Shown piece by piece: positions 1 to 11,910 of a stretch of DNA of 11,910 bases. A program made the position numbers and the translations under genes. The stretch comes from a virus. How positions within the stretch are numbered: position 1 is the first letter of the stretch; every line of letters starts with the position of its first letter. The notes beneath the pieces were generated by a model. That model had not been told where the DNA came from. It did no database searches and worked only from the letters and a program-made list of their open reading frames with translations. Location of the stretch: UHGV virus genome UHGV-0361702; one strand, given 5' to 3'.

Positions 1-17
1 TCAGCGAGCTGGTTGAT

Positions 18-335
18 ATGGTTTACGAGTATTGCCGGAAGCGAGGCCTGTATCCGGATGCAGAGTCTTATCCGTGGAAATCGAACGCGCACTACTGGCT
101 GGTTACCAACCTGTACCAGAACATGCGGGCCAATGCGCTGACTGACGCGGAATTACGACGCAAGGCTGCCGATGAACTGACCTGTATGACAGCGCGAATT
201 AACCGTGGTGAGACGATACCTGAACCAGTAAAACAACTTCCTGTCATGGGCGGCAGACCTCTAAATCGTGTTCAGGCGCTGGCGAAGATCGCAGAAATTA
301 AAGCTAAGTTAGGACTGAAAGGAGCAAGTGTATGA
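18..335 (+). CDS. hypothetical protein, probably 5'-truncated (reading frame stays open to the window edge upstream of the first ATG)
   Basis: ORF of 105 codons; no stop in frame between position 3 and the ATG at 18 and no Shine-Dalgarno before that ATG, so the gene likely starts upstream of the window. Its stop (TGA 333-335) overlaps the ATG of the next gene (ATGA), indicating translational coupling. No family recognised. Confidence 0.45.
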   Translation: MVYEYCRKRGLYPDAESYPWKSNAHYWLVTNLYQNMRANALTDAELRRKAADELTCMTARINRGETIPEPVKQLPVMGGRPLNRVQALAKIAEIKAKLGLKGASV

Positions 336-550
336 CGGGCAAAGAGGCAATTATTCATTACCTGGGGACGCATAATAGCTTCTGTGCGCCGGACGTTGCC
401 GCGCTAACAGGCGCAACAGTAACCAGCATAAATCAGGCCGCGGCTAAAATGGCACGGGCAGGTCTTCTGGTTATCGAAGGTAAGGTCTGGCGAACGGACT
501 GCGTGAATAGCGTTTTGCTGATGTGCTGGAGATCGAATTTCAAAGGTTAG
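332..550 (+). CDS. hypothetical small protein (72 aa), possibly helix-turn-helix DNA-binding
   Basis: Strong SD AAGGAG at 317-322, nine nt before ATG 332; ATGA overlap with upstream ORF. The segment PDVAALTGATVTSINQAAAKMARAGLL resembles an HTH. Function not identified. Confidence 0.5.
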   Translation: MTGKEAIIHYLGTHNSFCAPDVAALTGATVTSINQAAAKMARAGLLVIEGKVWRTDCVNSVLLMCWRSNFKG

Positions 551-764
551 TTTTTTCATGACTTCCCTCTCTAACAGATTTCAGGTTATTCCACTCCGTT
601 ACCGCACTGCGATAATTCGCGGCCACCACAGCAGCGTGGTTAGCGCAGTAGATTTGGCACCCGTTCTCCATGTCGAATATTGTCGGTGATTTTCCGCATT
701 TACATTTTTTGGCACGCGGTGCGTCTGAACACATTCCGTTAACGGTGTCCATCAGGATCACCAT
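540..764 (-). CDS. hypothetical Cys-rich small protein (possible zinc ribbon; Lar-like restriction alleviation is a tentative guess only)
   Basis: 74-codon minus-strand ORF with Cys pattern C-x7-C-x-C-x13-C-x3-C and a C-terminal AVTEWNNL motif. Weak SD; its 3' end overlaps the convergent plus-strand ORF by 11 nt. Low confidence that it is expressed. Confidence 0.3.
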   Translation of the reverse strand: MVILMDTVNGMCSDAPRAKKCKCGKSPTIFDMENGCQIYCANHAAVVAANYRSAVTEWNNLKSVREGSHEKTNL

Positions 765-777
765 CGTTCTTAATCCA

Positions 778-806
778 ATAAAAAAGGGCTACTGTGTAAA
801 TAGCCC
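778..806 (-). terminator. intrinsic terminator downstream of the helicase gene
   Basis: On the minus strand: GGGCTA (806-801 complement) - 9-nt loop - TAGCCC followed by a U-run (plus-strand A-run 780-785), about 28 bp after the helicase stop codon. Confidence 0.6.
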
Positions 807-833
807 CTGTTATTAGCTCAGTGACGTAGATGG

Positions 834-2210
834 TCATACGTCCGCCCCTTGTGCATATCGTCTGCCACGCGCAGCAGGCGCATTTGATGCTGTGCAAATC
901 TGTCTGGCTTCATCCTGGTCACATGCAACAAAGTGTCCGTTGCAGAACCGCTGGTAAACCGTACCAAGTGAGCCAAAACGGTTTTTCGTCACAATGATTT
1001 CAGCAAATGGCGCGGCGCTACTGTTCTCGTCATATACCGCTTCCCGATAGAGCATGATGATTGAGTCTGCGTCCTGTTCAATGCTTCCTGAATCACGCAA
1101 ATCTGCGTTTGTCGGGCGTTTGTTTGGTCGCTTCTCAACATCGCGTGAAAGCTGACTTAGGGAGATAACAGGCGTTTTCAGGTCTTTCGCCATCGCCTTA
1201 AGGCTTCCTGAGATGTGGGCAATTGCGAGGTCGTTGCGATCTGCTTTCGGCTTCTCAATCAGGCCAAGATAATCCGCCATGATGAGTGACAGGTTTGGAT
1301 TTTCCTGTTTGTGTCGTTCTGCGATTGAGCGTATTTCTTCGACCGATAACCGCGAGGCATCGACTACCCATACATCCAAATCTGCAAGCTGACTCATGCC
1401 GTTAGCAACACGCGCCCAGCCTTCGTCATCCATCGATGCAGGATTTCGCAGTACGCTAACCGACATCCTCCCGGCGTTGGCAATGCTTCGCTCTGCAATC
1501 TGCAATGCGCTCATTTCCATTGAGAAAATCAATACCCCGCGCCGGACGTCAGAACCAGGAATAACGCGGCTTGCAACGCCTTCGGCAATCTTCAGCGCCA
1601 GCTCGGTTTTCCCCATACCAGGACGAGCAGCGATTATCACCAGGTCTTCTGCGTTCATCCCTCCGGTGATGGCATCAAGTTCTTCGATTCCGGTCTTCAG
1701 GGTATCGGACTCTTCTCCGTTCCTCAGACGCCTGTCAAGCGTGTCAGTGTAGTCAGTAATGATTTCCCCTAACCGTACAGGTTTAACCTCGTCACGGGGC
1801 TTTCTGATGGCTGAAAGACGCTTTACAAGCTCATCCATCGCCTGACTCGATGCGTCGATGGTTCCGCTCTGAATTGGTTCACGCATTTCATCCATGATTT
1901 CCAGCACCAGACGGCGGTGATAGTTATCCGCGACCATTCCGGCATATCCCTTCAGGTTTGCGGCACTCGGGCAGTTTTTGCTGGTCATCAGGATTGCGGT
2001 GAAATGCTCCTCTCCGCACGCCTCGGCAACCATCAGCGCGTCGATTAGGTTTCTGTTTCTCGCCTGCTTGCGAATAACCTCGAAGGCTTTCCGGTAGAGC
2101 GGAATTGAAAACGCTTCCGGCTCCAGCGTTGCAAGAACGTCACTGGCGGTTGGAGTTAATCCACCAATCAGCAGGCCACCGATAACGCTCGCTTCGATAT
2201 CCTGTCTCAT
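834..2210 (-). CDS. DnaB-family replicative DNA helicase (P22 gene 12-like)
   Basis: 458-aa ORF with Walker A motif GMGKT ([15 protein letters not shown]) and overall DnaB-like organisation; start overlaps the stop of the upstream O-like gene; sits where lambdoid phages place P or gene 12. Confidence 0.9.
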
Positions 2211-3154
2211 GCAATCCCCCTGTCTGCAAACTTCCCTTCCCGAACTCCCGTTAACGAGTCTTCTCTCAGCAGGTAATCAAAATCAGCCGTCCAGCCCGTG
2301 TCGTTGTCTCCGAAGTAAAACGGCTTGGCCTGATGCACAAACGCCCTGACATACGCTCTGAAACCGTCCACGTTTGGCGTTTTCAGTTGCGGGATGATTT
2401 TCTTCAGGCGGCGTTTTCGTTTCTCGTTGACCGCAACAGCGTGTGGCAGTCTGTCACCGACTTCGGTGTTGTAGGCGTTCAGGAAGGATTCGTAGTCGAT
2501 TCGTTCTGCCTTGCGACGTTCAGGTTTAACCTGCCCATCGCCTCCCCCATTGGGGGGTAGGGGGGTATTATTTATATTCTTGTTAATACCTTCTTGTTCA
2601 TGATGTGCGGTTGTTTGTGCGGCTTCATGTGCGCTTTCATGTGCGGCATGTACGCTGAAAGCCGCGCTATTGCTGGCTTCATCATGTGCGGCATCATGTG
2701 CGGTTGTTTGTGCGGCTTCATGTGCGGGTAAATTGTCCATTTTTTGAGCATATTCATGGTAATTTGTGATGGTTATCACACGGCCTTTTTGCTTCTCTCC
2801 ATCAATGGAGATCATCCCCTCTTTCACAAAAACCTGAAGCATCCGCTCAACCTGATCACGGCTTGCTGGCTTGCCATGTCTGTCGCATAACTGAAGACCT
2901 AAATCAGCTGCTGTCACAACCAGTTGACCGGGTTGCAGATGCCATTCATGACCTTTGAAATTCGCTTTGTATGGCTTTCTGGCGGCATTCAGGAGAAGGT
3001 TTTCCCACAGGGTGCGAAGATAAACATCTTTCGCCCATGACTGTTTCAGAATGCTCCGGTACAACGGAATGTAACCAGTTTTCTGGTTCTCCATCCTGTT
3101 GCTCCTGCGCTCGTGTGCGGCGCTGAAATCGTAGATTTTTGCTGTATTGCTCAT
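2207..3154 (-). CDS. replication initiator protein (lambda O / P22 gp18-like) with internal origin iterons
   Basis: 315-aa ORF starting MSNTAKI (lambda O starts MTNTAKI), immediately upstream of the helicase gene. The central linker is a His/Ala-rich repeat ([17 protein letters not shown]...) encoded by the iteron DNA. SD-like GGCAGGTAG precedes ATG at 3154. Confidence 0.75.
2598..2728. repeat. origin of replication iterons (about 8 copies of an 11-12 bp unit CATGTGCGG) inside the O-like gene, flanked by an AT-rich segment at 2565-2600
   Basis: Direct repeats ending at 2610, 2622, 2634, 2647, 2692, 2703, 2715, 2727 (gatgtgcgg / tttgtgcgg / catgtgcgg variants). A 31-bp exact direct repeat ATGTGCGGTTGTTTGTGCGGCTTCATGTGCG occurs at 2603-2633 and 2696-2726. 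AT-rich stretch follows in gene orientation, as in lambda ori. Confidence 0.6.
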
Positions 3155-3156
3155 AA

Positions 3157-3429
3157 CTACCTGCCTTGACGAAAGACCTTAAGAACATCGTTAAACTGAC
3201 TTACGGATATGTCTTCTTTGAGAAGCTTTTCCAGAAATGCGTTTGGAATGAACGTATATCCCTCCTCTTTTGGTAGAGACGGGAGCAACGCCCTCGCCTC
3301 AGCCTTCAGAAGCTCAGTTCTGGCAACTTTCACAAAAGAGATTTGAGTTCTTTCATCAATGGAACGAAGGAAGCGCAAACGCTTAGCTTCTTTGTGTGTA
3401 TCAGGTGGATTAAAGCCTTTGTTTCGCAT
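3157..3429 (-). CDS. hypothetical protein (90 aa) inserted between cII and the O-like gene
   Basis: ATG at 3429-3427 (complement) preceded by SD GAGGT with 7-nt spacing; stop TAG ends 2 nt before the O-like ATG (coupled). Sequence MRNKGFNPPDTHKEAKRLRF... not recognised. Lambda has only about 30 bp here. Confidence 0.45.
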   Translation of the reverse strand: MRNKGFNPPDTHKEAKRLRFLRSIDERTQISFVKVARTELLKAEARALLPSLPKEEGYTFIPNAFLEKLLKEDISVSQFNDVLKVFRQGR

Positions 3430-3440
3430 ATAATTACCTC

Positions 3441-3507
3441 GTTGGATGTTGTTAAAATTCCATTTGTATTTGATCAGAACGCTCGGTTGCCGCCGGGCGT
3501 TTTTTAT
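3441..3507 (+). ncRNA. oop: OOP-like antisense RNA (antisense to the cII 3' end)
   Basis: Plus-strand TATAAT at 3429-3434, then a GC-rich hairpin (3480-3499) followed by TTTTTTATT (3500-3508). The 3' segment GTTGCCGCCGGGCGTTTTTTATT matches the remembered lambda OOP terminator. It overlaps the last roughly 55 nt of cII on the opposite strand. Exact 5' end is inferred. Confidence 0.5.
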
Positions 3508-3745
3508 TGGTGAGAATCGAAGCAACTTGTCGTGCCAATCGAGCCATGTCGTCGTCGACAACACCCCATTCAAGAACAGCAAGCAGCATTGAGAACTTTG
3601 GAATCCAGTCCCTCTTCCACCTGCTGATCTGCGACTTATCAACGCCCACAGCTTCCGCTGTCTTCTCAGTTCCAAGCATTGCGATTTTGTTAAGCAACGC
3701 ACTCTCGATTCTTAGAGCCTCGTTGCGTTTGTTTGCACGAACCAT
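3452..3745 (-). CDS. cII: CII transcriptional activator (lambda cII-type)
   Basis: 97-aa product MVRANKRNEALRIESALLNKIAMLGTEKTAEAVGVDKSQISRWKRDWIPKF... is nearly identical to lambda CII as remembered. The six-frame ORF begins further upstream (3832), but the internal ATG at 3745 gives the canonical 97-aa protein. Confidence 0.9.
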   Translation of the reverse strand: MVRANKRNEALRIESALLNKIAMLGTEKTAEAVGVDKSQISRWKRDWIPKFSMLLAVLEWGVVDDDMARLARQVASILTNKKRPAATERSDQIQMEF

Positions 3746-3756
3746 ATGTAAGTATT
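3723..3756 (+). promoter_or_regulatory. pRE-like CII-dependent promoter (TTGC-N6-TTGC CII box) directed toward cI
   Basis: TTGC at 3723-3726 and 3733-3736 separated by 6 nt (cgTTGCgtttgtTTGCacgaaccatatgtaagtat), same arrangement as lambda pRE, overlapping the cII start codon on the opposite strand. Confidence 0.6.
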
Positions 3757-3804
3757 TCCTTAACAAATAAGAAGTTATGCGCATCAACTTATGCGCGTTG
3801 TATT

Positions 3805-3846
3805 CCCGCATTTCGGCGGGAATGAGGACCATGACTGTTAAAGAGC
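3805..3846 (-). promoter_or_regulatory. nutR (boxA GCTCTTTAACA + boxB hairpin CCCGCCGAAATGCGGG)
   Basis: On the minus strand between cro and cII: boxA (3846-3836 complement) then a 5-bp stem / 6-nt loop hairpin (3820-3805 complement). Identical boxA and boxB occur at nutL on the plus strand. Confidence 0.65.
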
Positions 3847-3853
3847 AATTTGC

Positions 3854-4039
3854 TTATGCCGCTTTGCGGTAAGCGCTTTCTTGATACTTCAGGGCGCCAG
3901 CTGTAACGACTTCCAGTCGATAGGCGTCTTTCTCTGGGATGACTTCCTTCCACTGAGAGACTGCTGCGTCGCTAATGCCTAACGCTTTAGCTACAGCACG
4001 CTGGGTTCCGAAGTGGTCGATAACATCTTTCTTGTACAT
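3854..4039 (-). CDS. cro: Cro repressor (P22 cro-type)
   Basis: 61-aa HTH protein (QRAVAKALGISDAAVSQW) divergent from cI across the operator region; SD GGAG (complement of 4046-4049) 6 nt upstream of ATG. Confidence 0.85.
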   Translation of the reverse strand: MYKKDVIDHFGTQRAVAKALGISDAAVSQWKEVIPEKDAYRLEVVTAGALKYQESAYRKAA

Positions 4040-4053
4040 AGACTCGCTCCGAA

Positions 4054-4119
4054 ATTAAAGAACACTTAAATTATCCACTAAAGGAATCTTAAGTCAAGTT
4101 TATTTAAGATGTCTTAACT
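4054..4119. promoter_or_regulatory. oR operator cluster (three 18-bp sites) with divergent pR (minus) and pRM (plus)
   Basis: Three sites fitting ANTNAAG-N4-CTTNANT: 4054-4071 ATTAAAGAACACTTAAAT, 4077-4094 ACTAAAGGAATCTTAAGT, 4102-4119 ATTTAAGATGTCTTAACT. pR on minus strand: -35 TTGACT (complement of 4092-4097), 16-bp spacer, -10 GATAAT (complement of 4070-4075). pRM position (ending next to the cI ATG at 4120) is inferred, not precisely located. Confidence 0.7.
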
Positions 4120-4770
4120 ATGAAAACTCAATTGATGGGAGAGCGCATTCGCGCTCGGAGAAAAGAACTCAAGATCAGGCAGGCCGCACTTGGAAAGATG
4201 GTCGGCGTGTCTAATGTTGCCATATCTCAGTGGGAACGCTCTGAGACAGAGCCAAATGGAGAGAATCTTCTCGCCCTGGCTAATGCGTTGAAGTGTTCCC
4301 CTGACTATCTGATGAAAGGAGAGGAAAGTCTTTCAAACATTGCCTATCACAGTAGGCATGATCCAAGAGGGTCATACCCTCTGATTAGCTGGGTGAGCGC
4401 AGGATGCTGGATGGAAGCTGTAGAACCATATCATAAGCGTGCAATAGATAACTGGTACGATACAACCGTAGACTGTTCAGAAGATTCGTTTTGGTTGGAC
4501 GTGAAGGGAGACTCAATGACGGCTCCGGCCGGTCTCAGTATCCCTGAAGGAATGATAATACTCGTCGATCCTGAAGTAGAGCCGCGTAACGGGAAACTGG
4601 TAGTTGCAAAGCTCGAAGGAGAAAACGAGGCAACTTTCAAGAAGTTAGTTATTGATGCAGGCAGGAAGTTTCTAAAACCACTTAACCCACAATATCCGAT
4701 GATCGAGATCAACGGAAACTGCAAAATCATCGGCGTAGTTGTCGATGCAAAACTAGCAAACCTTCCATAA
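4120..4770 (+). CDS. cI: prophage repressor, P22 C2-type (CI family; N-terminal HTH, C-terminal LexA-like S24 autopeptidase domain)
   Basis: 216-aa protein with HTH (QAALGKMVGVSNVAISQWE), Ala-Gly cleavage site (VSAGCW), catalytic Ser (GDSM) and Lys (VVAKLEG). Closely matches the P22 c2 repressor as remembered. Confidence 0.95.
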   Translation: MKTQLMGERIRARRKELKIRQAALGKMVGVSNVAISQWERSETEPNGENLLALANALKCSPDYLMKGEESLSNIAYHSRHDPRGSYPLISWVSAGCWMEAVEPYHKRAIDNWYDTTVDCSEDSFWLDVKGDSMTAPAGLSIPEGMIILVDPEVEPRNGKLVVAKLEGENEATFKKLVIDAGRKFLKPLNPQYPMIEINGNCKIIGVVVDAKLANLP

Positions 4771-4795
4771 GGGGGCATTCGCCCCTTTTTTTTTA
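4771..4795 (+). terminator. intrinsic terminator immediately after the repressor gene
   Basis: GGGGGCATTCGCCCC hairpin followed by a run of nine T. Confidence 0.7.
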
Positions 4796-4837
4796 TTTCC
4801 TTTAAAAATCAAAGCTAAACTTAAGTTACGAAAGAAA

Positions 4838-4891
4838 ATTTAAGTTTTCTTCAAAAATACTCTTGACCATTAATTAAAGAGATCTTAAATT
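4838..4891 (+). promoter_or_regulatory. oL operators and pL promoter
   Basis: Operator-consensus 18-mers at 4873-4890 (ATTAAAGAGATCTTAAAT, same half-sites as the first oR site) and 4838-4855 (ATTTAAGTTTTCTTCAAA). -35 TTGACC at 4863-4868, 17-bp spacer, -10 TAAATT at 4886-4891. A third oL site was not confidently located. Confidence 0.6.
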
Positions 4892-4937
4892 TAAGCCATC
4901 AGCAGGACGCTGGAAGCCAAACGGAAAAGATTGGCAG

Positions 4938-4977
4938 GCTCTTTAACATTGATGGGATTGTCCCGCCGAAATGCGGG
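4938..4977 (+). promoter_or_regulatory. nutL (boxA GCTCTTTAACA + boxB hairpin CCCGCCGAAATGCGGG)
   Basis: boxA at 4938-4948; boxB 4962-4977 (stem CCCGC/GCGGG, loop CGAAAT) in the leader between pL and N; identical to the nutR elements. Confidence 0.65.
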
Positions 4978-5291
4978 AACCAAAGAGTAGTTGGCTTTGG
5001 GGTGACGTGAAGTGCAGCTGCACGACGGCAACCGGAAGATAAGCACCCGGCGCGTCACCGCCAAAGTCAATTCCATAGGCGTTATGCAGCCGCCACCATA
5101 TTCAAGAAAGCTGCACAAGAGGTAGGAGGATTTATGTGAATACTTACATTCAATTGAGAGATTAATTAAATAGAACTGATCGAGCAGAGTCCATAAAGGC
5201 TCATAAATGCTCTTCCATCCCCGTCTAATTGGCGGGGAAGGAAACCACTTTGTAATAAAAAAATTCCAAAGTTGTTTCATCGGAGGTCAAC

Positions 5292-5591
5292 ATGACAGTA
5301 GTCATTACATATCTGGCTGACGATAACGCCAGAAATCGCCGCAGAGCACGCAGACAGGCTCAACGTGAACAGGCAATGCAAGAACAGCGACTGGCGCGAA
5401 AGATTGCGCTAAAGCTCTCTGGTTGCGTCAGAGCAGACAAAGCAGCATCACTCGGAAGCCTTCGCTGCAAGAAGGCAGAAGAAGTCGAGAGTAAACAGAA
5501 TCGTATTTACTACCGCAAGCCACGCAGTGAAATGGGGGTGACTTGTGTTGGTCGCCAGAAAATGAAATTAGGAAGCAAACCACTTATTTGA
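5292..5591 (+). CDS. N: N-type transcription antitermination protein
   Basis: 99-aa protein with N-terminal arginine-rich motif (NARNRRRARRQAQREQ) and a C-terminus (RIYYRKPRSEMGVTCVGRQKMKLGSKPLI) closely resembling the lambda N C-terminus; SD GGAGG 5 nt upstream; first gene after pL and nutL. Confidence 0.8.
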   Translation: MTVVITYLADDNARNRRRARRQAQREQAMQEQRLARKIALKLSGCVRADKAASLGSLRCKKAEEVESKQNRIYYRKPRSEMGVTCVGRQKMKLGSKPLI

Positions 5592-5599
5592 GGTGATAT

Positions 5600-5686
5600 A
5601 TGGAAGAAGAATTTGAAGAGTTCGAAGAGCATCCGCAGGATGTGATGGAACAATACCAGGACTATCCTTATGACTACGACTATTGA
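5600..5686 (+). CDS. small acidic ORF (28 aa), positional equivalent of lambda orf28
   Basis: MEEEFEEFEEHPQDVMEQYQDYPYDYDY; SD GAGGTG before ATG; overlaps the ral start by 17 nt, the arrangement I recall for lambda orf28 and ral. Confidence 0.45.
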   Translation: MEEEFEEFEEHPQDVMEQYQDYPYDYDY

Positions 5687-5870
5687 TAAGAATCAATGGT
5701 GTGGACAATTCAAGCGATGCAATGGATGCAAGCTGCAATCGGAATGTATGGTTAAGCCTGAAGAAATGTTTCCTGTAATGGAAGATGGGAAATATGTCGA
5801 TAAATGGGCAATACGAACGACGGCAATGATTGCCAGAGAACTTAGTAAACAGAATAACAAGGCTGCCTGA
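5670..5870 (+). CDS. ral: Ral restriction-alleviation protein
   Basis: 66-aa product MTTTIDKNQWCGQFKRCNGCKLQSECMVKPEEMF... matches lambda Ral as remembered (same length). Confidence 0.8.
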   Translation: MTTTIDKNQWCGQFKRCNGCKLQSECMVKPEEMFPVMEDGKYVDKWAIRTTAMIARELSKQNNKAA

Positions 5871-5888
5871 TGGTGGCCTTTATTTTTG
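5859..5888 (+). terminator. intrinsic terminator-like hairpin overlapping the ral stop codon
   Basis: AAGGCTGCC-tgat-GGTGGCCTT stem (with two G-U pairs) followed by TATTTTTG. Confidence 0.5.
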
Positions 5889-5928
5889 TCCGTAAATAAT
5901 TTCATGCTTATTACAATCAAGGTGATAT

Positions 5929-6351
5929 ATGGAAGAACAAGCAAACAAGATTCTCGTAGAACTTCTGCAAAAAGCCAGTAATGGAATAGACGCGGCTGTT
6001 TCATTTAGCCAGGCACAGATTCCTGATGTTGTTCGTCAGTTGCTAACATGGAGTTTTGTCCATAGCGCACTTTTCCAAGTGGCTGGGTTGTTGCTTTTAA
6101 TTGCAGCAATGAAACTTCCTAGTTTTGCAAGAACGGCAAGAAATAATGGCGAGAGATGGACGTCTTTAGATGGATGTCCAAACGATAGATATTTTATATC
6201 TTCGTTTTATTACGATATATGCACTGTATTTGCTCCTATATTTGGCTCAATTATTGGCGTTTTAATTATTGCCTTCAATTTCGAATGGTTGAAGATTTGG
6301 CTTGCACCTAAGTTATTCCTAATTGAATATGCAGCATCATTGGTTAAGTAA
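5929..6351 (+). CDS. hypothetical inner-membrane protein (140 aa, 2-3 predicted TM helices)
   Basis: ATG preceded by AAGGTGATAT; hydrophobic segments LLTWSFVHSALFQVAGLLLLIAAM and ICTVFAPIFGSIIGVLIIAF; flanked by terminator hairpins on both sides. Not recognised as SieB or RexB from memory. Confidence 0.6.
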   Translation: MEEQANKILVELLQKASNGIDAAVSFSQAQIPDVVRQLLTWSFVHSALFQVAGLLLLIAAMKLPSFARTARNNGERWTSLDGCPNDRYFISSFYYDICTVFAPIFGSIIGVLIIAFNFEWLKIWLAPKLFLIEYAASLVK

Positions 6352-6355
6352 TTTC

Positions 6356-6381
6356 AGGCCGCATAGTCGGCCTTTATTTTT
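6356..6381 (+). terminator. intrinsic terminator after the membrane-protein gene
   Basis: AGGCCG-catagt-CGGCCT followed by TTTATTTTT. Confidence 0.6.
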
Positions 6382-6500
6382 GGCATAAACAACAGAATAA
6401 ACACTGCACTGTGTATTCATTCCAACGAGTGAATACACGGAGCAATGTCGCTCGTAACTAAACAGGAGCCGACTTGTTCTGATTGTTGGAAATCTTCTTT

Positions 6501-6528
6501 GCCCTCCAGTGTGAGGGCAATTTTTTTT
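6501..6528 (+). terminator. second intrinsic terminator, 13 nt upstream of the next gene
   Basis: GCCCTC-cagtgt-GAGGGC followed by AATTTTTTTT; the downstream gene must depend on N-antiterminated readthrough. Confidence 0.55.
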
Positions 6529-6540
6529 GATGGAGGATAT

Positions 6541-6891
6541 ATGAGTGAAGTAACAGATTTAGTTGTTATTGAAAAAGCAAATGCAATGACTGTATTTCAG
6601 TCTGCCGACCAGATTGAAGAAATTCTCCAAAAGGTTGAACGTGAAGTTATGTCATTTGTGCCTGATATCACAACGGCAAAGGGCAGAAAGGAGATCGCTT
6701 CTCTGGCGTATAAAGTTGCGCAGACGAAAACATATCTCGATGGTCTTGGCAAAGACCTTGTTGCTGAACTGAAGGAAATTCCAAAGCTAATTGATGCCAA
6801 CCGCAAGACAGTGCGCGATCGCCTTGATGAACTGAAAGCCAAGGCGCGCCAGCCTCTTACTGATTATGAGGAAGAATCAGGCGCGGATTAA
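6541..6891 (+). CDS. hypothetical protein (116 aa); possibly the N-terminal part of a frame-disrupted or recoded larger gene
   Basis: SD GGAGG at 6532-6536 then ATG 6541 (the upstream ATG at 6445 would read through the terminator hairpin and has a badly spaced SD). Ends ...KARQPLTDYEEESGAD, overlapping the next ORF by 26 nt in the +1 frame. Confidence 0.55.
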   Translation: MSEVTDLVVIEKANAMTVFQSADQIEEILQKVEREVMSFVPDITTAKGRKEIASLAYKVAQTKTYLDGLGKDLVAELKEIPKLIDANRKTVRDRLDELKAKARQPLTDYEEESGAD

Positions 6892-7510
6892 AGCCGAAGA
6901 AGAAGCTAAGGCAGCAGCTGAAGCTCTCGCAAAGCAAATTGAGTCTGACCATGAAATAGCGATTTTGATGGATCGCGAATTTGACCGCCAAAGAGAAGAG
7001 GCAAGACTCAAAGCGGAGCAGGAAAAGCGAGAGCATGAAGAACGATTAAAAAGAGAAGCTGAAGAGAAAGCCAGAGCAGAAGCCGAAGCAAAGGCAAAAG
7101 CCGAAATTGAAGCAGCAGCAAGGCGAGAAGCAGAAGCTAAGGCCGCAGCGGAACGTGCAGAGCGTGAACGCATTGAAGCCGAGCAACGAGCACAGCGCGA
7201 AGCAAAAGAGGCAGCAGAACGAGCTGAAAGAGAAAAGCAGGCAGCAATTGAAGCAGAACGCAGAAAAGCACAGGAGGAGGCTGAACGAATCCGTCGCGAG
7301 GCTGAAGCAAAAGAGCAAGCCAGAATAGCAGAAGAAAAAAGAATCAAGGACGAAGAAGAGCGTAGAGCAAAGGATAAAGCTCACCGGAAAGAAGTAAATA
7401 ACAAAATACTTGCTGACCTTATCAAGGTTGGCGCATCAGAAGATGTTGCTAAAAATATCATAACAGCCATCGTAAAAGGCGAAGTATTCGCAACAAAAAT
7501 AACCTACTAA
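6866..7510 (+). CDS. hypothetical highly charged E/R/K/A-rich helical protein (214 aa as annotated); likely the continuation of the preceding ORF
   Basis: No SD before ATG 6866, and its frame is open from 6836; about 130 residues of ER/K-rich low-complexity sequence (REAEEKARAEAEAKAKAEIEAAARREAEAK...) followed by a short C-terminal domain (ILADLIKVGASEDVAKNIITAIVKGEVFATKITY). Confidence 0.5.
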   Translation: MRKNQARIKAEEEAKAAAEALAKQIESDHEIAILMDREFDRQREEARLKAEQEKREHEERLKREAEEKARAEAEAKAKAEIEAAARREAEAKAAAERAERERIEAEQRAQREAKEAAERAEREKQAAIEAERRKAQEEAERIRREAEAKEQARIAEEKRIKDEEERRAKDKAHRKEVNNKILADLIKVGASEDVAKNIITAIVKGEVFATKITY

Positions 7511-7534
7511 TAAAACCAACATAAGGAACCACCC

Positions 7535-7666
7535 ATGATTTACGCAATCGCGGGAGGCGCTCGCATGGGTGCCTTCCAACTAAATGAATCTTTACTTGAA
7601 CGAATCACCCGTAAATTACGTGACGGATGGAAAAGAGTTGAGGTCTTATTATGCGCAATGAAATAG
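7535..7666 (+). CDS. cIII: CIII-like protein (FtsH/HflB inhibitor)
   Basis: 43 aa, MIYAIAGG...NESLLERITRKLRDGWKR; the core matches lambda CIII (ESLLERITRKLRDGWKR) as remembered; SD AAGGA 6 nt upstream. Confidence 0.8.
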   Translation: MIYAIAGGARMGAFQLNESLLERITRKLRDGWKRVEVLLCAMK

Positions 7667-7803
7667 CCATCAATCACCAGATGCTTCGTGCTGCACAGAA
7701 CAAAGCAGTAATAGCCAGATTTATTGGTGATTCCAAAATGTGGCTTGAAGCAAATAAAGCGATGAAATCAGCTATCAACCTTCCGTGGTATCGCAGGAAA
7801 TGA
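7651..7803 (+). CDS. kil: Kil-like small protein (host cell-division inhibitor)
   Basis: 50 aa; immediately downstream of and overlapping cIII, as in lambda; motif ARFIGDSKMW resembles the lambda Kil segment ATFIGDEKM as I recall it. Identity partly positional. Confidence 0.55.
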   Translation: MRNEIAINHQMLRAAQNKAVIARFIGDSKMWLEANKAMKSAINLPWYRRK

Positions 7804-7958
7804 GTTTTACAGATAACTGGTCAGACGAAGAATTCATTCGTCAGATTAAAGAATTAATCGGTAACGAAGGAGATATTCATGTCACTTGCAACCACAGTGA
7901 AGGAGAGCAAGTTACAGAGACGCATGTACACGCAGAAAGCTCTCTGGTATCGCCATAA
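7800..7958 (+). CDS. hypothetical small acidic protein (52 aa)
   Basis: ATGA overlap with kil stop; AGGA just upstream; MSFTDNWSDEEFIRQIKELIGNEGD... The position upstream of erf is where P22 has arf, but no sequence support. Confidence 0.4.
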   Translation: MSFTDNWSDEEFIRQIKELIGNEGDIHVTCNHSEGEQVTETHVHAESSLVSP

Positions 7959-8059
7959 TGGTGACCGCGAAGGAATGCGGGTATGCCTTAATTTGTCCCG
8001 AGTCGAAGTATTAAATCAGCGTTATTTCCTTGGGCCGTGTCCATTCTGAGAGCAATCAT

Positions 8060-8665
8060 ATGAGCAAAGAATTTTACGCAAGACTGGCAGCTATTCAGGA
8101 GAATCTGAACGCGCCAAAGAATCAGTACAACTCATTCGGCAAATATAAATACAGAAGCTGCGAAGATATTCTTGAAGGCGTTAAGCCGTTACTGAACGGT
8201 CTGTTTTTATCAATCAGCGATGAAGTTGTGTTGATTGGTGATCGGTATTACGTGAAAGCCACGGCAACTATTACCGATGGCGAAAACAGTCATACGGCAA
8301 CCGCTCTTGCACGAGAGGAAGAAAGCAAGAAAGGAATGGATTCTGCACAAGTTACGGGAGCTACAAGCTCTTATGCACGCAAGTATTGCCTCAATGGTTT
8401 GTTCGGCATTGATGATGCGAAAGATGCAGATACAGACGAGCATAAACATCAGCAGAACGCAGCAGCAAAGCAATCAAAACCATCACTTACACCTGAACAG
8501 GTTCTAAAAGCATTCACTGACGCAGCAATGCAGAAAAACACCGTAGAAGAGCTTAAACAGGCGTTCGCCAAAGCGTGGAAGATGCTCGAAGGGACGCCGG
8601 AGCAGCACAAAGCGCAGGACGTTTACAACATCAGACGAGACGAATTAGAAGGGGCAACTGCTTAA
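8060..8665 (+). CDS. erf: Erf-family single-strand annealing recombinase (P22 Erf-like)
   Basis: 201 aa starting MSKEFYARLAAIQENLNAPKNQYNSFGKYKYRSCEDILEGVKPLL..., which closely matches the P22 Erf N-terminal domain as remembered. The first ATG of the six-frame ORF (8030) is less likely than 8060. Confidence 0.85.
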   Translation: MSKEFYARLAAIQENLNAPKNQYNSFGKYKYRSCEDILEGVKPLLNGLFLSISDEVVLIGDRYYVKATATITDGENSHTATALAREEESKKGMDSAQVTGATSSYARKYCLNGLFGIDDAKDADTDEHKHQQNAAAKQSKPSLTPEQVLKAFTDAAMQKNTVEELKQAFAKAWKMLEGTPEQHKAQDVYNIRRDELEGATA

Positions 8666-9048
8666 TGGCACATTCGATTACAGTAAGACTAAACAAACCC
8701 GCAAGAGAGTTTCAGGGCGGGGAAAATATCGGATTCAACATCCGTGCTGGCGTTCAGTATTACGATCGCCAGACAAAAAAGAAAGAATGGACAAACTACA
8801 GCGCCGTTGTATTTGCCAAGCCGGGAGCGCAAGCGGATTACTATCGTAGCGTTCTGGTTGAAGGAGGCATTGTAGAAATTACCGGAGAAAACATCAGGGT
8901 TGATGTTTATCAGGGGCAAAATGGTCAATCAATCACTCTTGAATTACTGAATGCAAAGATTGGATTTGCAACTTCAGGAAACAGCCAACAGCAGCAAAGT
9001 AGCAATCATCAAAATAATCCTGAATACGACGATTCCATCCCATTCTGA
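8665..9048 (+). CDS. phage SSB-like single-stranded DNA-binding protein (short OB-fold with C-terminal acidic tail)
   Basis: 127 aa ending ...NNPEYDDSIPF, the hallmark SSB C-terminal tail (E. coli SSB ends DDDIPF); TAATG overlap with erf stop. Confidence 0.75.
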   Translation: MAHSITVRLNKPAREFQGGENIGFNIRAGVQYYDRQTKKKEWTNYSAVVFAKPGAQADYYRSVLVEGGIVEITGENIRVDVYQGQNGQSITLELLNAKIGFATSGNSQQQQSSNHQNNPEYDDSIPF

Positions 9049-9071
9049 TTTAGAAAAATAAGGATTTAATT

Positions 9072-9368
9072 ATGCCAGCGCCTTTGTATGGTGCGGATGA
9101 CCCGCGCCGCTGTTCCGGCAATTCCGTATCGGAGGTGCTGGATAAATTCAGAAAAAACTACGATCGAATAATGTCTCTACCGCAGGAAACGAAAGAGGAA
9201 AAGGAATTTCGCCACTGTATATGGCTTGCAGAGAAAGAAGAACGCGAGCGAATTTACCAGACATCAATCCGACCATTCCGCAAAGCCACATATACCCACT
9301 TCCCTGAATATATCGACCCGCGCCTGCGTAATTACCGCTCACGCTATGGCGCTATCAGTAATGACTGA
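9072..9368 (+). CDS. hypothetical protein (98 aa); by position a candidate Abc-like RecBCD modulator, unverified
   Basis: SD AAGGA then ATG 9072; MPAPLYGADDPRRCSGNSVSEVLDKFRKNY.... The functional guess rests only on location downstream of erf as in P22. Confidence 0.6.
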   Translation: MPAPLYGADDPRRCSGNSVSEVLDKFRKNYDRIMSLPQETKEEKEFRHCIWLAEKEERERIYQTSIRPFRKATYTHFPEYIDPRLRNYRSRYGAISND

Positions 9369-9462
9369 GGAATTTACCATGAGAGGACTTGCTTAAGAGA
9401 AAGAGTTTCGGTTCTGTTAATGACAACAAATATCTGAATGCGATGTGGCGGAGTGGGAAGAA

Positions 9463-9981
9463 ATGAAACAAATGTCACTAATTGAGATGGATGGTTTTCT
9501 GAAAGGTAAATGCATCCCAAGTGATTTAAAGGTTAACGAAACAAACGCTGAATACCTTGTCCGTAAGTTCGGTGAACTTGAATCAAAACTGGAAACGGCG
9601 TTGCGGGAGTGTAGTTCTGCTGGAATCACGATTGATAACCTTGAGGCTAAATGCGCGAAGATGGCTGCTGAAAATACCTCACTTAAGCAATCTGAGAAGG
9701 AATTTAATGACTTTTGTCGTGAGGAGTTTAGCGAATGGGAAGATGATGTTACTGAAACCCCAGCCACCGATGCTTTTCTGGCTGAAGTGCGGGCGCAGGG
9801 GGTGGATGCTGCTATAGAAGCTGCAAAAAATCTGGTGGCCCAAGAATATGAGTATAAGGATTTCAAAGCGGCGCAGAGTGATTGCTGTATGCACCCTGGT
9901 TCAGACCTGGTAGGGAAGGTTGAAATGACTGAGTGGTTAGTTGACTTTGCTGCCCAGCTTCGCAAAGGAGGCAACCAGTGA
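9463..9981 (+). CDS. hypothetical protein (172 aa), predicted coiled-coil
   Basis: ATG 9463 with GGAG 9 nt upstream (the six-frame ORF begins at GTG 9445); stop overlaps the next start (GTGA). Confidence 0.55.
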   Translation: MKQMSLIEMDGFLKGKCIPSDLKVNETNAEYLVRKFGELESKLETALRECSSAGITIDNLEAKCAKMAAENTSLKQSEKEFNDFCREEFSEWEDDVTETPATDAFLAEVRAQGVDAAIEAAKNLVAQEYEYKDFKAAQSDCCMHPGSDLVGKVEMTEWLVDFAAQLRKGGNQ

Positions 9982-10277
9982 CTGTATGTCTTATTGATAA
10001 ACGTCGACGTGGGCAACAAATACCATCTGTTGAAATGCCGAATCACACATGGTTTTGCGTACTTGATATCGATGGTATGGATACGTTGGTTGACACTCGT
10101 CATTACTGCGATACCGCAACAGCTACTCCGGCGAAAGCAAAGAAAATGGCTGCTCTGATAGAAAACTGGACTCCACCTGATGGTTGGTGCAATGGGAATG
10201 ATCGAGATTGGCACGAAAAAATGAAGGGCTATATCTGCGATTTTTTACGTAAATGCAACGGCTTCAGGGGGATGTGA
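9978..10277 (+). CDS. hypothetical Cys/Trp-rich protein (99 aa)
   Basis: GTG start 9978 preceded by GGAGG with 6-nt spacing; translationally coupled to the neighbouring genes. Confidence 0.5.
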   Translation: MTVCLIDKRRRGQQIPSVEMPNHTWFCVLDIDGMDTLVDTRHYCDTATATPAKAKKMAALIENWTPPDGWCNGNDRDWHEKMKGYICDFLRKCNGFRGM

Positions 10278-10278
10278 T

Positions 10279-10851
10279 ATGACCAAAATTAACTATCAGG
10301 CACTGCGTGAGGCGGCAGAACGTGCAATTCCGGCAATGGAACGCCTGTTAATGTTGCCAGTTGATGATGATTTGTTAAGTGAACAGGAACTTAAGGATTA
10401 CGGTGTGGATATTGATGCGCTCAACGCCTTCAAATTTCTGACCGGACCAGAAACCGTGCTGGCGCTGCTGGATGAACGGGAAAGAAACCAGCAATACATC
10501 AAACGCCGCGACCAGGAGAACGAGGAAATTGCGCTAACGGTAGGGAAGCTGCGCGTTGAGCTGGAAGCTGCAGAGAAGCGCATTGCAGAACTGGAAGCCG
10601 AACCTGTAAGCCAAACTTACAAGTTGAACGAGCTGTCGGGCAACTATCCGGTAACTCCGGATGGTTGGATAAGCTGTAGTGAGCGAATGCCCGCTCAAGA
10701 TGATTGGATTTTAATTTATTCAAAGCACGGCGAGTATATGGCAGGACAGGTACAAGGGGAATACGTGGAGTTGAGCGACGGCACTTTATCGTGGTTAGGG
10801 AACGCCTTGTACTGGATGCCTCTACCGGAACCGCCGCAGGAGGTTAATTGA
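10279..10851 (+). CDS. Ead/Ea22-like protein with C-terminal DUF551-type domain
   Basis: N-terminal region (PETVLALLDERE...LEAAEKRIAELEA) resembles Ead/Ea22-like prophage proteins and the C-terminus ends ...YWMPLPEPP, typical of DUF551, both from memory. SD AGGGGGA before ATG. Confidence 0.6.
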   Translation: MTKINYQALREAAERAIPAMERLLMLPVDDDLLSEQELKDYGVDIDALNAFKFLTGPETVLALLDERERNQQYIKRRDQENEEIALTVGKLRVELEAAEKRIAELEAEPVSQTYKLNELSGNYPVTPDGWISCSERMPAQDDWILIYSKHGEYMAGQVQGEYVELSDGTLSWLGNALYWMPLPEPPQEVN

Positions 10852-11135
10852 TGGTCTCCTTCGCGAAATATACGATTATTGACTGGATAGCATTCATTCA
10901 GGTTTTGCTCATCTGGTTTTATATGGCTTACAGGAGTGGACAGTGGATTGTCAGTGTAGCCTGTAGCAATGGATGGCGTTGGTGGAACCGAAAGAATAAA
11001 AAAGCGCTGGCCTTGGCTTCGTTTTACGAAGCATTCAATCTTAACAGTCTTCAGCCTGGTTCTGTCGTTGTAGTCACCACTCAAAGCGGCATGACGATAC
11101 AAATTCACAAGCCAAAGGAGGAAGGTCGTGGCTAA
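10851..11135 (+). CDS. hypothetical small membrane protein (94 aa, one N-terminal TM segment)
   Basis: SD AGGAGG 7 nt upstream of ATG 10851 (TGATG overlap with the upstream stop); hydrophobic segment IIDWIAFIQVLLIWFYMAY. Confidence 0.5.
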   Translation: MVSFAKYTIIDWIAFIQVLLIWFYMAYRSGQWIVSVACSNGWRWWNRKNKKALALASFYEAFNLNSLQPGSVVVVTTQSGMTIQIHKPKEEGRG

Positions 11136-11412
11136 CCTGCAACTTGCCGTTAAAGGTGAATACTTCGATGCCATGATTCGCGGAGAGAAAACGGAAGAGT
11201 ATCGCCTGTGTAATGACTACTGGAATAAGCGAATTATGTTCCGCGAGTATGACCGCCTGATTATCACAAAGGGATATCCGAAGCGCGACGATTCCAGCCG
11301 CAGAATTGACGTCCCGTATGACGGATATGAAATCAAGACAATCACACATCCGCACTTCGGCGATAAACCGGTAAAGGTGTTCGCTATAAAGGTGAATATC
11401 GACAATGAATGA
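11128..11412 (+). CDS. hypothetical protein, possibly ASCH/PUA-like fold (DUF3850-like)
   Basis: GTG start preceded by AAGGAGG with 6-nt spacing; N-terminal motif LAVKGEYFDAMIRGEKTEEYRL resembles ASCH-domain proteins. Family assignment is tentative. Confidence 0.5.
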   Translation: MANLQLAVKGEYFDAMIRGEKTEEYRLCNDYWNKRIMFREYDRLIITKGYPKRDDSSRRIDVPYDGYEIKTITHPHFGDKPVKVFAIKVNIDNE

Positions 11413-11484
11413 TAATCCTCGCACTCGCGGGGATTTCTTTTATCTGAACTCGCTACGGCGGGTTTTGTTTTATGGAGATGATAA

Positions 11485-11652
11485 ATGCACTTCCGAGTCA
11501 CAGGTGAATGGAATGGAGAGCCATTCAACAGAGTTATCGAAGCAGAGAACATCAACGACTGCTATGACCACTGGATGCTGTGGGCGCAGATAGCACATGC
11601 AGACGTAACTAATATTCGAATTGAAGAACTGAAAGAACACCAAGCCGCCTGA
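11485..11652 (+). CDS. hypothetical small protein (55 aa)
   Basis: Not in the supplied ORF track (below its size cut-off). ATG 11485 with GGAG 7 nt upstream; product MHFRVTGEWNGEPFNRVIEAENINDCYDHWMLWAQIAHADVTNIRIEELKEHQAA; stop codon lies within a terminator hairpin. Confidence 0.4.
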   Translation: MHFRVTGEWNGEPFNRVIEAENINDCYDHWMLWAQIAHADVTNIRIEELKEHQAA

Positions 11653-11667
11653 TGGCGGTTTTTTATT
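11643..11667 (+). terminator. intrinsic terminator
   Basis: CCGCC-tgat-GGCGG stem followed by TTTTTTATT. Confidence 0.6.
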
Positions 11668-11709
11668 GCCTGATTTGCAGGTTCGATTCCCTATTCGGAG
11701 ATAGCACTC

Positions 11710-11910
11710 ATGCAACACGAACTACAACCTGATTCACTGGTTGATTTGAAATTCATCATGGCCGATACTGGCTTCGGTAAAACCTTCATCTATGACCGGA
11801 TTAAGTCCGGCGACCTGCCAAAAGCCAAAGTTATCCACGGGCGAGCAAGATGGTTATATCGTGACCATTGTGAATTCAAAAATAAGCTCTTAAGCCGCGC
11901 CAATGGGTAA
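11710..11910 (+). CDS. xis: AlpA-family helix-turn-helix protein, likely excisionase (Xis)
   Basis: 66 aa with the AlpA-type signature (LVDLKFIMADTGFGKTFIYDRIKSGDLPKAKVIHGRARWLYRDHCEF); last gene of the leftward operon at the window edge, where an integrase gene would be expected just beyond. Confidence 0.6.
   Translation: MQHELQPDSLVDLKFIMADTGFGKTFIYDRIKSGDLPKAKVIHGRARWLYRDHCEFKNKLLSRANG

Follow-up and report, generated by a model that had tools for sequence, protein, structure and literature searches.

In lambda, N antitermination governs all genes past cro, with the nin region situated between O/P and Q (PMC10695390). The intact members of the group closest to the locus described here are laid out on a single strand: in CUS-3, HK97, P22, and Nil2, the terminator tR2 is followed by ninB and then by the remaining nin region as far as Q. 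CUS-3 (CP000711.1), a P22-like prophage of Escherichia coli K1 strain RS218, has a complete ninB, followed by ninE, ninF, roi, rus, ninH, Q, the lysis genes, and the head genes, all on one strand. HK97, a functional phage, likewise extends to a Q-type antiterminator, gp69. Prophages of the lambda type, in which P is followed by ren, encode a full Ren protein of 96 aa, with ninB downstream on the same strand. One of these, which bears quuD/ompC/iss, is present in E. coli NU14, UTI89, CFT073, and Nissle 1917. As for tR2, a published construct in which the terminator lies about 30 bp past the NinA start codon, within a short ORF, kept most of its efficiency (PMC4824070).

The stretch of DNA analyzed here (referred to as the window; 11,910 nucleotides of the viral genome UHGV-0361702) begins with 834 positions that are not one genetic unit: they contain the ends of two known lambdoid prophages of ST95-type extraintestinal E. 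coli. The window as a whole is composed of two pieces butted together at 497|498, each of which is 100% identical to a different prophage in the same ST95-type genomes (Table 1). In a base-by-base comparison with NU14, positions 1-497 corresponded to 1254295-1254791 with 0 mismatches in 497 bases, and positions 498-11910 to 2637239-2648651 with 0 mismatches in 11,413 bases; the annotation of NU14 places P/ren in the first of these segments and ninB to torI in the second. NU14, UTI89, and other ST95-type E. coli harbor both parental prophages in one genome. Phage CUS-3 itself and its copies in UTI89, IHE3034, and other genomes likewise show 100% identity to the window from position 498 onward. 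The first-pass annotation, made from the sequence alone, had described a rightward operon that meets convergent genes on the opposite strand. The discontinuity it pointed to is real, and the break is sharp, but what had been read as convergent genes is the P-ren segment of a second lambdoid prophage.

Table 1. Features of the window discussed in the text, with positions, strand, and assignment.
Feature	Position	Strand	Remarks
3' part of lambda-type replication gene P (helicase loader)	1..335	+	codons ~124-233 and stop
ren, codons 1-55 and 1 nt	332..497	+	100% identical to annotated 'protein ren'
72-aa ORF, formerly 'HTH-like'	332..550	+	Ren residues 1-55 and 17 residues from antisense ninB
Breakpoint	497..498		blunt join of two unrelated loci, no shared base
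Right piece, CUS-3	498-11910		ninB (from nt 62, minus strand), Cys-rich ORF, ninA, DnaB-type helicase, O, cII, cro, cI, N, ending at xis
ninB fragment	498..559	-	first 62 nt of CUS-3 ninB (20 codons and 2 nt), cut at the breakpoint
Cys-rich nin-region ORF (conserved)	540..752	-	70 aa; HK97 gp60 / CUS-3 ECRS218_0038 type; longest ORF to 764
ninA-like ORF	739..837	-	32 codons; CUS-3 ninA, HK97 gp56; phrog_5907, 9.5e-18
tR2-type intrinsic terminator (predicted)	775..808	-	10-bp stem (808-784), 5-nt loop, then UUUUAUU
DnaB-type replicative helicase	834..2210	-	458 codons; P22 gene 12 / HK97 gp55 type; Pfam
nutR	3803..3846	-	boxA GCTCTTTAACA, then boxB hairpin
nutL	4938..4978	+	boxA and boxB same as nutR; leftward transcript, upstream of N
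N	5292-5591		annotated in CUS-3

The left piece opens with an ORF that had been reported as truncated at its 5' end. It is open from the edge of the window, and this edge is its sole truncation. The encoded fragment matched the Pfam profile of lambda replication protein P (PF06992, Phage_lambda_P) with 74.8 bits, above the curated cut-off of 26 (E = 8.5e-21). The match spanned profile positions 89-162 of 162, which form the C-terminal half, and the C-terminal 110 residues of P fall inside the window. The same fragment was 100% identical to the annotated 'replication protein P' of phages ev207 and ev017, and of NU14, UTI89, and many other genomes. As in intact prophages, the start codon of ren overlaps the stop codon of P as ATGA. 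The P-ren segments of ev207/ev017 and of the NU14 prophage are 100% identical to the whole of positions 1-497, this overlap included, and that of phage 933W is 99.6% identical. The difference from these prophages lies in the length of ren, which in the window is cut after nucleotide 166, behind codon 55. Accordingly placed matches were found among the PHROGs (phrog_7054, 4.5e-39; phrog_142, 'Ren-like exclusion protein', 3.2e-20), covering residues 1-55/56 only; homology to Ren, the lambda Rex-exclusion escape protein, extends over these residues alone and not over the full 96 aa.

The start codon of ren is also that of the ORF of 72 codons coupled to P, its ATG overlapping the preceding stop (ATGA), which had been taken for an HTH-like gene. 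This ORF is a fusion frame made by the join and no natural gene: behind the Ren residues, it reads through the breakpoint into 17 residues of antisense ninB. The impression of an HTH protein arose because weaker matches of the MarR type cover the same Ren residues. The exact 72-aa product had no record among 153 billion gene positions in an exact look-up, and the same was true of the second ORF fused across the join (51 aa).

The right piece reproduces CUS-3. The CUS-3 record was identical to the window across the 7,803 bases compared, and CUS-3 and its copies in NU14 and UTI89 agree with the window in gene order, tR2, the nut sites, N, cI/cro, erf, and xis. The helicase gene, with Pfam matches to DnaB_C (9.6e-78) and DnaB (3.9e-13), is 100% identical to the CUS-3 gene annotated as 'P: replicative DNA helicase'. 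Its stop codon overlaps the ATG of the ninA-like ORF (ATGA), and the tR2 hairpin lies inside the latter. The same order is found at the start of the nin region of HK97, where a block 97.7% identical to the window comprises the helicase gene (gp55), a ninA-like gene of 32 codons with a hairpin (gp56), a Cys-rich gene of 70 aa (gp60), and the gene for NinB (gp61). The ninB fragment of the window is 100% identical to ninB of CUS-3 and NU14; its N-terminus, MKKLTFEIRSPAHQQNAIHAV (559-498), is that of CUS-3 NinB, and it gave a weak match to phrog_72 (NinB/Orf). Neither this start of ninB nor the ninA-like ORF had been noticed in the first pass.

Unlike in CUS-3, ninB stops in the window after nucleotide 62, and it is only up to this nucleotide that the HK97/CUS-3 order (helicase, ninA, gp60-type ORF, and ninB through to Q on one strand) is kept. 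Sequence of the other prophage then follows, and the CUS-3 segment lacks the nin-Q-late continuation that HK97 and CUS-3 have.

The Cys-rich ORF had been considered weakly supported. It is, however, annotated in both CUS-3 and HK97, called as a gene in many public assemblies, and matched over its full length by phrog_6308 (7.1e-54), a family to which no function is assigned. The exact protein was found in 54 collection blocks; of the contigs encoding it, 24 were read, and each had the gene between ninA and ninB. In none of these 24 was ren or P beside it; ninB and other nin genes adjoined instead. Searches of Pfam (even with E up to 10), NCBIfam, and the PDB gave no match. A Lar-like identity, considered for this ORF, is unsupported, as these databases were blank and only the PHROG without function remained.

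Taken as ORFs, all three had been placed correctly: the truncated ORF and the coupled 72-codon ORF on the plus strand and the Cys-rich ORF on the minus strand were recovered from the ORF list and the raw sequence. Homology searches identified them as a P fragment, a Ren fusion, and a gp60-type ORF, and none as an unknown HTH or moron gene. All elements of this region (P, ren, tR2 in ninA, the gp60-type ORF, ninB, and the helicase gene) are already known.

A terminator-like hairpin was likewise confirmed 3' of the helicase gene. On the minus strand, its stem had a fold energy of -12.6 kcal/mol (z = -3.3 versus shuffles); the hairpin starts 29 nt after the ATG of ninA, and its T-run extends down to about position 775. 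The first-pass annotation had made this hairpin the end of the operon. That reading is wrong because intact relatives continue beyond tR2 with the nin genes and Q, without a change of strand. In the window too, ninA, the Cys-rich ORF, and 62 nt of ninB lie downstream on the strand of the helicase gene. Also missed was that the hairpin is an ordinary one of the tR2 type within ninA, in a window that contains N, nutL, and nutR.

The pR operon thus read on the minus strand consists of cro, nutR, cII, O, the helicase gene, ninA with the tR2-type hairpin, the Cys-rich ORF, and ninB. It normally runs on past the hairpin, and in the window it is cut 336 nt after the helicase stop codon. The nutR site is situated between cro and cII, upstream of O, the helicase gene, and tR2, and has an 11-mer boxA and a 14-mer boxB core in common with nutL. 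By analogy with lambda and P22, tR2 would limit transcription until N, loaded at nutR, allows the polymerase to pass it and reach the nin genes and Q; we infer N-dependent read-through at this site.

At the join itself, ren is interrupted after its nucleotide 166 and ninB after its nucleotide 62, and transcriptional polarity reverses. No microhomology is present: ren reads ...CGAACGG|TGTA, CUS-3 ...GCTGT|ACTGCG, and the window ...CGAACGG|ACTGCG. When positions 1-900 were searched by megablast in phage records and in 5,426 complete E. coli genomes, no record covered at least 80% of the query. No record spanned the join among 50,697 phage records, the 5,426 complete E. coli genomes, and 72,556 plasmids. 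A 29-mer across the join was absent from 2.9 million viral contigs (IMG/VR) and from 185,579 species-representative genomes, a collection that holds one genome per species and says little on rare E. coli variants. Shorter junction words (a 16-mer and a 20-mer) gave only chance matches, in metagenome and genome contigs of unrelated taxa with a flank identity of about 25-40%; the 16-mer is too short a word for a collection of 596 Gb.

This structure bears on the proposals that the region is a module junction or a moron insertion. Lambdoid phages are mosaics, and a true mosaic boundary exists close by, at the foot of the tR2 hairpin. A natural lambdoid module junction would be expected to lie at or between genes, keep polarity, and recur, whereas this break falls within two coding sequences, inverts polarity, lacks flanking homology, and has no counterpart in any other phage or genome (0 of 50,697 phage records; 0 of 2.9 million viral contigs). 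It would also set two replication modules head to head, without an intervening Q or late genes. A moron would be an autonomous cassette of promoter, gene, and terminator set between genes that are neighbors in related phages. The plus-strand ORFs are instead fragments of P and ren, for which no promoter of their own was found in the window, and CUS-3 sequence does not resume to their left within it. We consider a natural mosaic boundary or moron insertion in a functional phage extremely improbable.

The position of the two halves in complete genomes was informative with regard to the remaining explanations. Both were found at 100% in 8 distinct complete strains, on the same relative strand and 1.36-1.50 Mb apart. 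As the halves share their relative strand in all eight, the join is of the deletion type; a simple inversion is ruled out, the relative strand being the same in all reference genomes. The interval between the halves holds gyrA and nrdAB. Because gyrA is essential, a join that removes this interval implies a non-viable chromosome.

A physically real join would come from an illegitimate rearrangement of the end-joining type in one strain, fusing a lambda-type early region to that of CUS-3. Such an event would have destroyed ren and ninB and removed nin, Q, lysis, and morphogenesis genes from both prophages, leaving two dead remnants head to head. Both flanks are clean as far as the join itself, prophages commonly decay by deletion, and with both breaks near ninB, one could conceive of a local event, for example breakage of the nin region upon co-induction. 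The window moreover ends at the xis/torI stop codon and could represent a predicted provirus trimmed from a longer host contig. Against this stand the deletion of 1.36-1.50 Mb, including gyrA and nrdAB, that it entails in 8 of 8 complete strains with both halves, and the absence of the junction from all collections searched and of the fused ORFs from the gene positions looked up. Zero microhomology counts against it as well: E. coli is not known to have canonical NHEJ, and microhomology is what its alternative end joining usually relies on. On balance, a real rearrangement appears unlikely, and less probable than a non-biological join; it is the only form in which the earlier idea of a defective prophage survives. 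That idea was right in that the helicase segment of the window is without nin, Q, and late genes; as an account of the locus, it holds only if the join is real, with the megabase deletion this requires. The narrower claim, that some ST95-like E. coli carries a chromosomal or episomal head-to-head fusion of the two early regions, free of homology and with both breaks beside ninB, seems quite unlikely to us. If true, it would hint at nin-region breakage and end joining when two lambdoid prophages are co-induced; a real join would otherwise be a private event of prophage decay, of modest interest.

In our view, the join between the two known prophage segments most likely, and with good probability, has a non-biological origin outside the cell; a living chromosome is unlikely to contain it. 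The artefact is inferred from the flanks, each of which exactly matches one of two far-apart loci in a single genome, and from the junction, which is unique to the window. Candidate routes would be an error of assembly, a chimera in a read or a ligation product, or contig ends that were concatenated or wrapped around near the ninB repeat. The only inverted repeat common to both prophages near the breakpoints is ninB (97% identity). The break in ren lies 199 nt upstream of the ATG of one copy, and no repeat was found there; the break in CUS-3 lies 62 nt into the other copy, which is 29 nt into an exact run of 101 nt that is preceded by an exact run of 45 nt. A public draft contig ends 158 nt into ninB, so assemblies do break within this gene.

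Two points run counter to an artefact. The breakpoints are off the exact repeat boundaries and do not form a simple pattern of k-mer contig ends, and the source strain could carry its lambda-type prophage elsewhere than the eight references do, in which case the deletion might be viable.

Two specific routes were considered and set aside. Homologous exchange between the prophages does not fit, as neither breakpoint is in register with ninB, the sole shared inverted repeat near them, and exchange at the inverted ninB copies would give collinear hybrids rather than a head-to-head join. De Bruijn contig ends at repeat boundaries are not supported either, since the earlier 45-nt exact run would break the contig first.

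A related possibility is that sequencing caught a minority or transient molecule, for example an aberrant recombination product of co-replicating induced prophages. The parental prophages do coexist in the same strains, and both breaks are within one functional region, but assemblers rarely emit minority junctions with perfect flanks, and such a molecule would look the same as a library chimera unless the reads tell them apart. We regard it as very unlikely. With a non-biological join as the preferred explanation, the convergent layout is probably no real feature, resting as it does on one blunt join that no other sequence supports.

The main value of this locus is one of caution. Taken at face value, it would lead to the annotation of a false HTH gene from a fusion of Ren and antisense ninB, to an 'operon end' wrongly placed at a terminator that transcription normally passes, and to a false call of a defective prophage.

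The terminator itself could be compared with described tR2 sites. The hairpin of the window is rich in G+C, is followed by a U-run, and occupies a position 3' of the replication genes and 5' of ninB that matches annotated tR2 sites. It aligned column for column with the corresponding sites of Nil2 (AJ413274.1), where the position is annotated as 'tR2 terminator', and of P22 (NC_002371.2), where it is annotated inside ninA as 'terminator; L2; similar to phage lambda'. In all of them, a hairpin with a U-run is found about 28-30 nt past the helicase stop or ninA start, upstream of ninB, in an operon subject to N antitermination, and the spacing in the published tR2-in-NinA construct is similar (about 30 bp, compared with 29 nt here). 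The letters of the stem, in contrast, are wholly unlike, being AGGGGCUAUU...AGUAGCCCUU in the window and AGGCCUGC...GCAGGCCU in P22 and Nil2; both the CUS-3/HK97 stem and the P22/Nil2 stem are nevertheless predicted to fold into a hairpin followed by a U-run in the same place. Judged from alignment and predicted fold, the tR2 of the window is a positional and structural equivalent of that of P22 and Nil2, and not a copy. At the foot of this hairpin, the CUS-3/HK97 type ceases to be homologous to the P22/Nil2 type, which marks a real mosaic boundary close to the join.

Comparison of the CUS-3/HK97-type helicase-ninA region with that of the P22/Nil2 type, represented by the P22 and Nil2 loci, showed that homology stops at approximately position 805 of the window, where the 5' side of the tR2 hairpin, the terminator within ninA, has its foot. 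The tR2 stems of the two types have no sequence relation, yet each folds. The foot of tR2 looks like a genuine mosaic boundary, placed at the terminator.

A 244-kb contig of a public draft assembly (GCA_013017845.1, contig DABHTI010000007.1), which carries the same prophage, terminates 158 nt into ninB (locus positions 3194-3351), which shows that this gene is a natural place for assemblies to break. The gene is common to co-resident prophages. At the right end, the stop codon of xis/torI coincides exactly with the end of the window (NU14 position 2648651), which may indicate that the source sequence was cut to fit the end of a gene, as could happen when a provirus is predicted and excised from a longer sequence. 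In NU14, the E. coli strain, xis/torI is the final annotated prophage gene, with dsdC next.

Features discussed in this section
Feature	Position	Strand	Remarks
tR2 hairpin	784-808	-	
nutR	3803-3846	-	boxA GCTCTTTAACA; boxB hairpin 13-14 nt further on
nutL	4938-4978	+	boxA GCTCTTTAACA; boxB hairpin 13-14 nt further on
cI-N interval ORF	4891-5280	-	129 codons; antisense overlap with nutL
pL-operon ORF pair	6445-6891 and 6866-7510	+	26-nt overlap
ORF downstream of erf	8665-9048	+	product terminus ...PEYDDSIPF
xis/torI	11710-11910	+	

The two nut sites match and have the boxB core TCCCGCCGAAATGC in common; the start of N (5292) lies more than 300 nt downstream of nutL. The ORF in the cI-N interval is annotated as a hypothetical protein in NU14; in the CUS-3 record, this interval contains no CDS and is labelled "boundary sequence" (bsq5). 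As its composition appears non-coding, this ORF is probably spurious. The pL-operon pair is likewise annotated in 2 ways: as a single frameshifted "TolA" pseudogene in NU14 (PGAP), and as two hypothetical proteins in the CUS-3 record. The second ORF encodes a repeat protein extremely rich in Glu, Lys, Ala, and Arg, and the pair may be two separate genes or may result from a frameshift, whether programmed or not. Finally, the product of the ORF downstream of erf, in NU14 only a hypothetical protein, may be a phage SSB, since its terminus resembles the acidic tip with which bacterial SSB ends.
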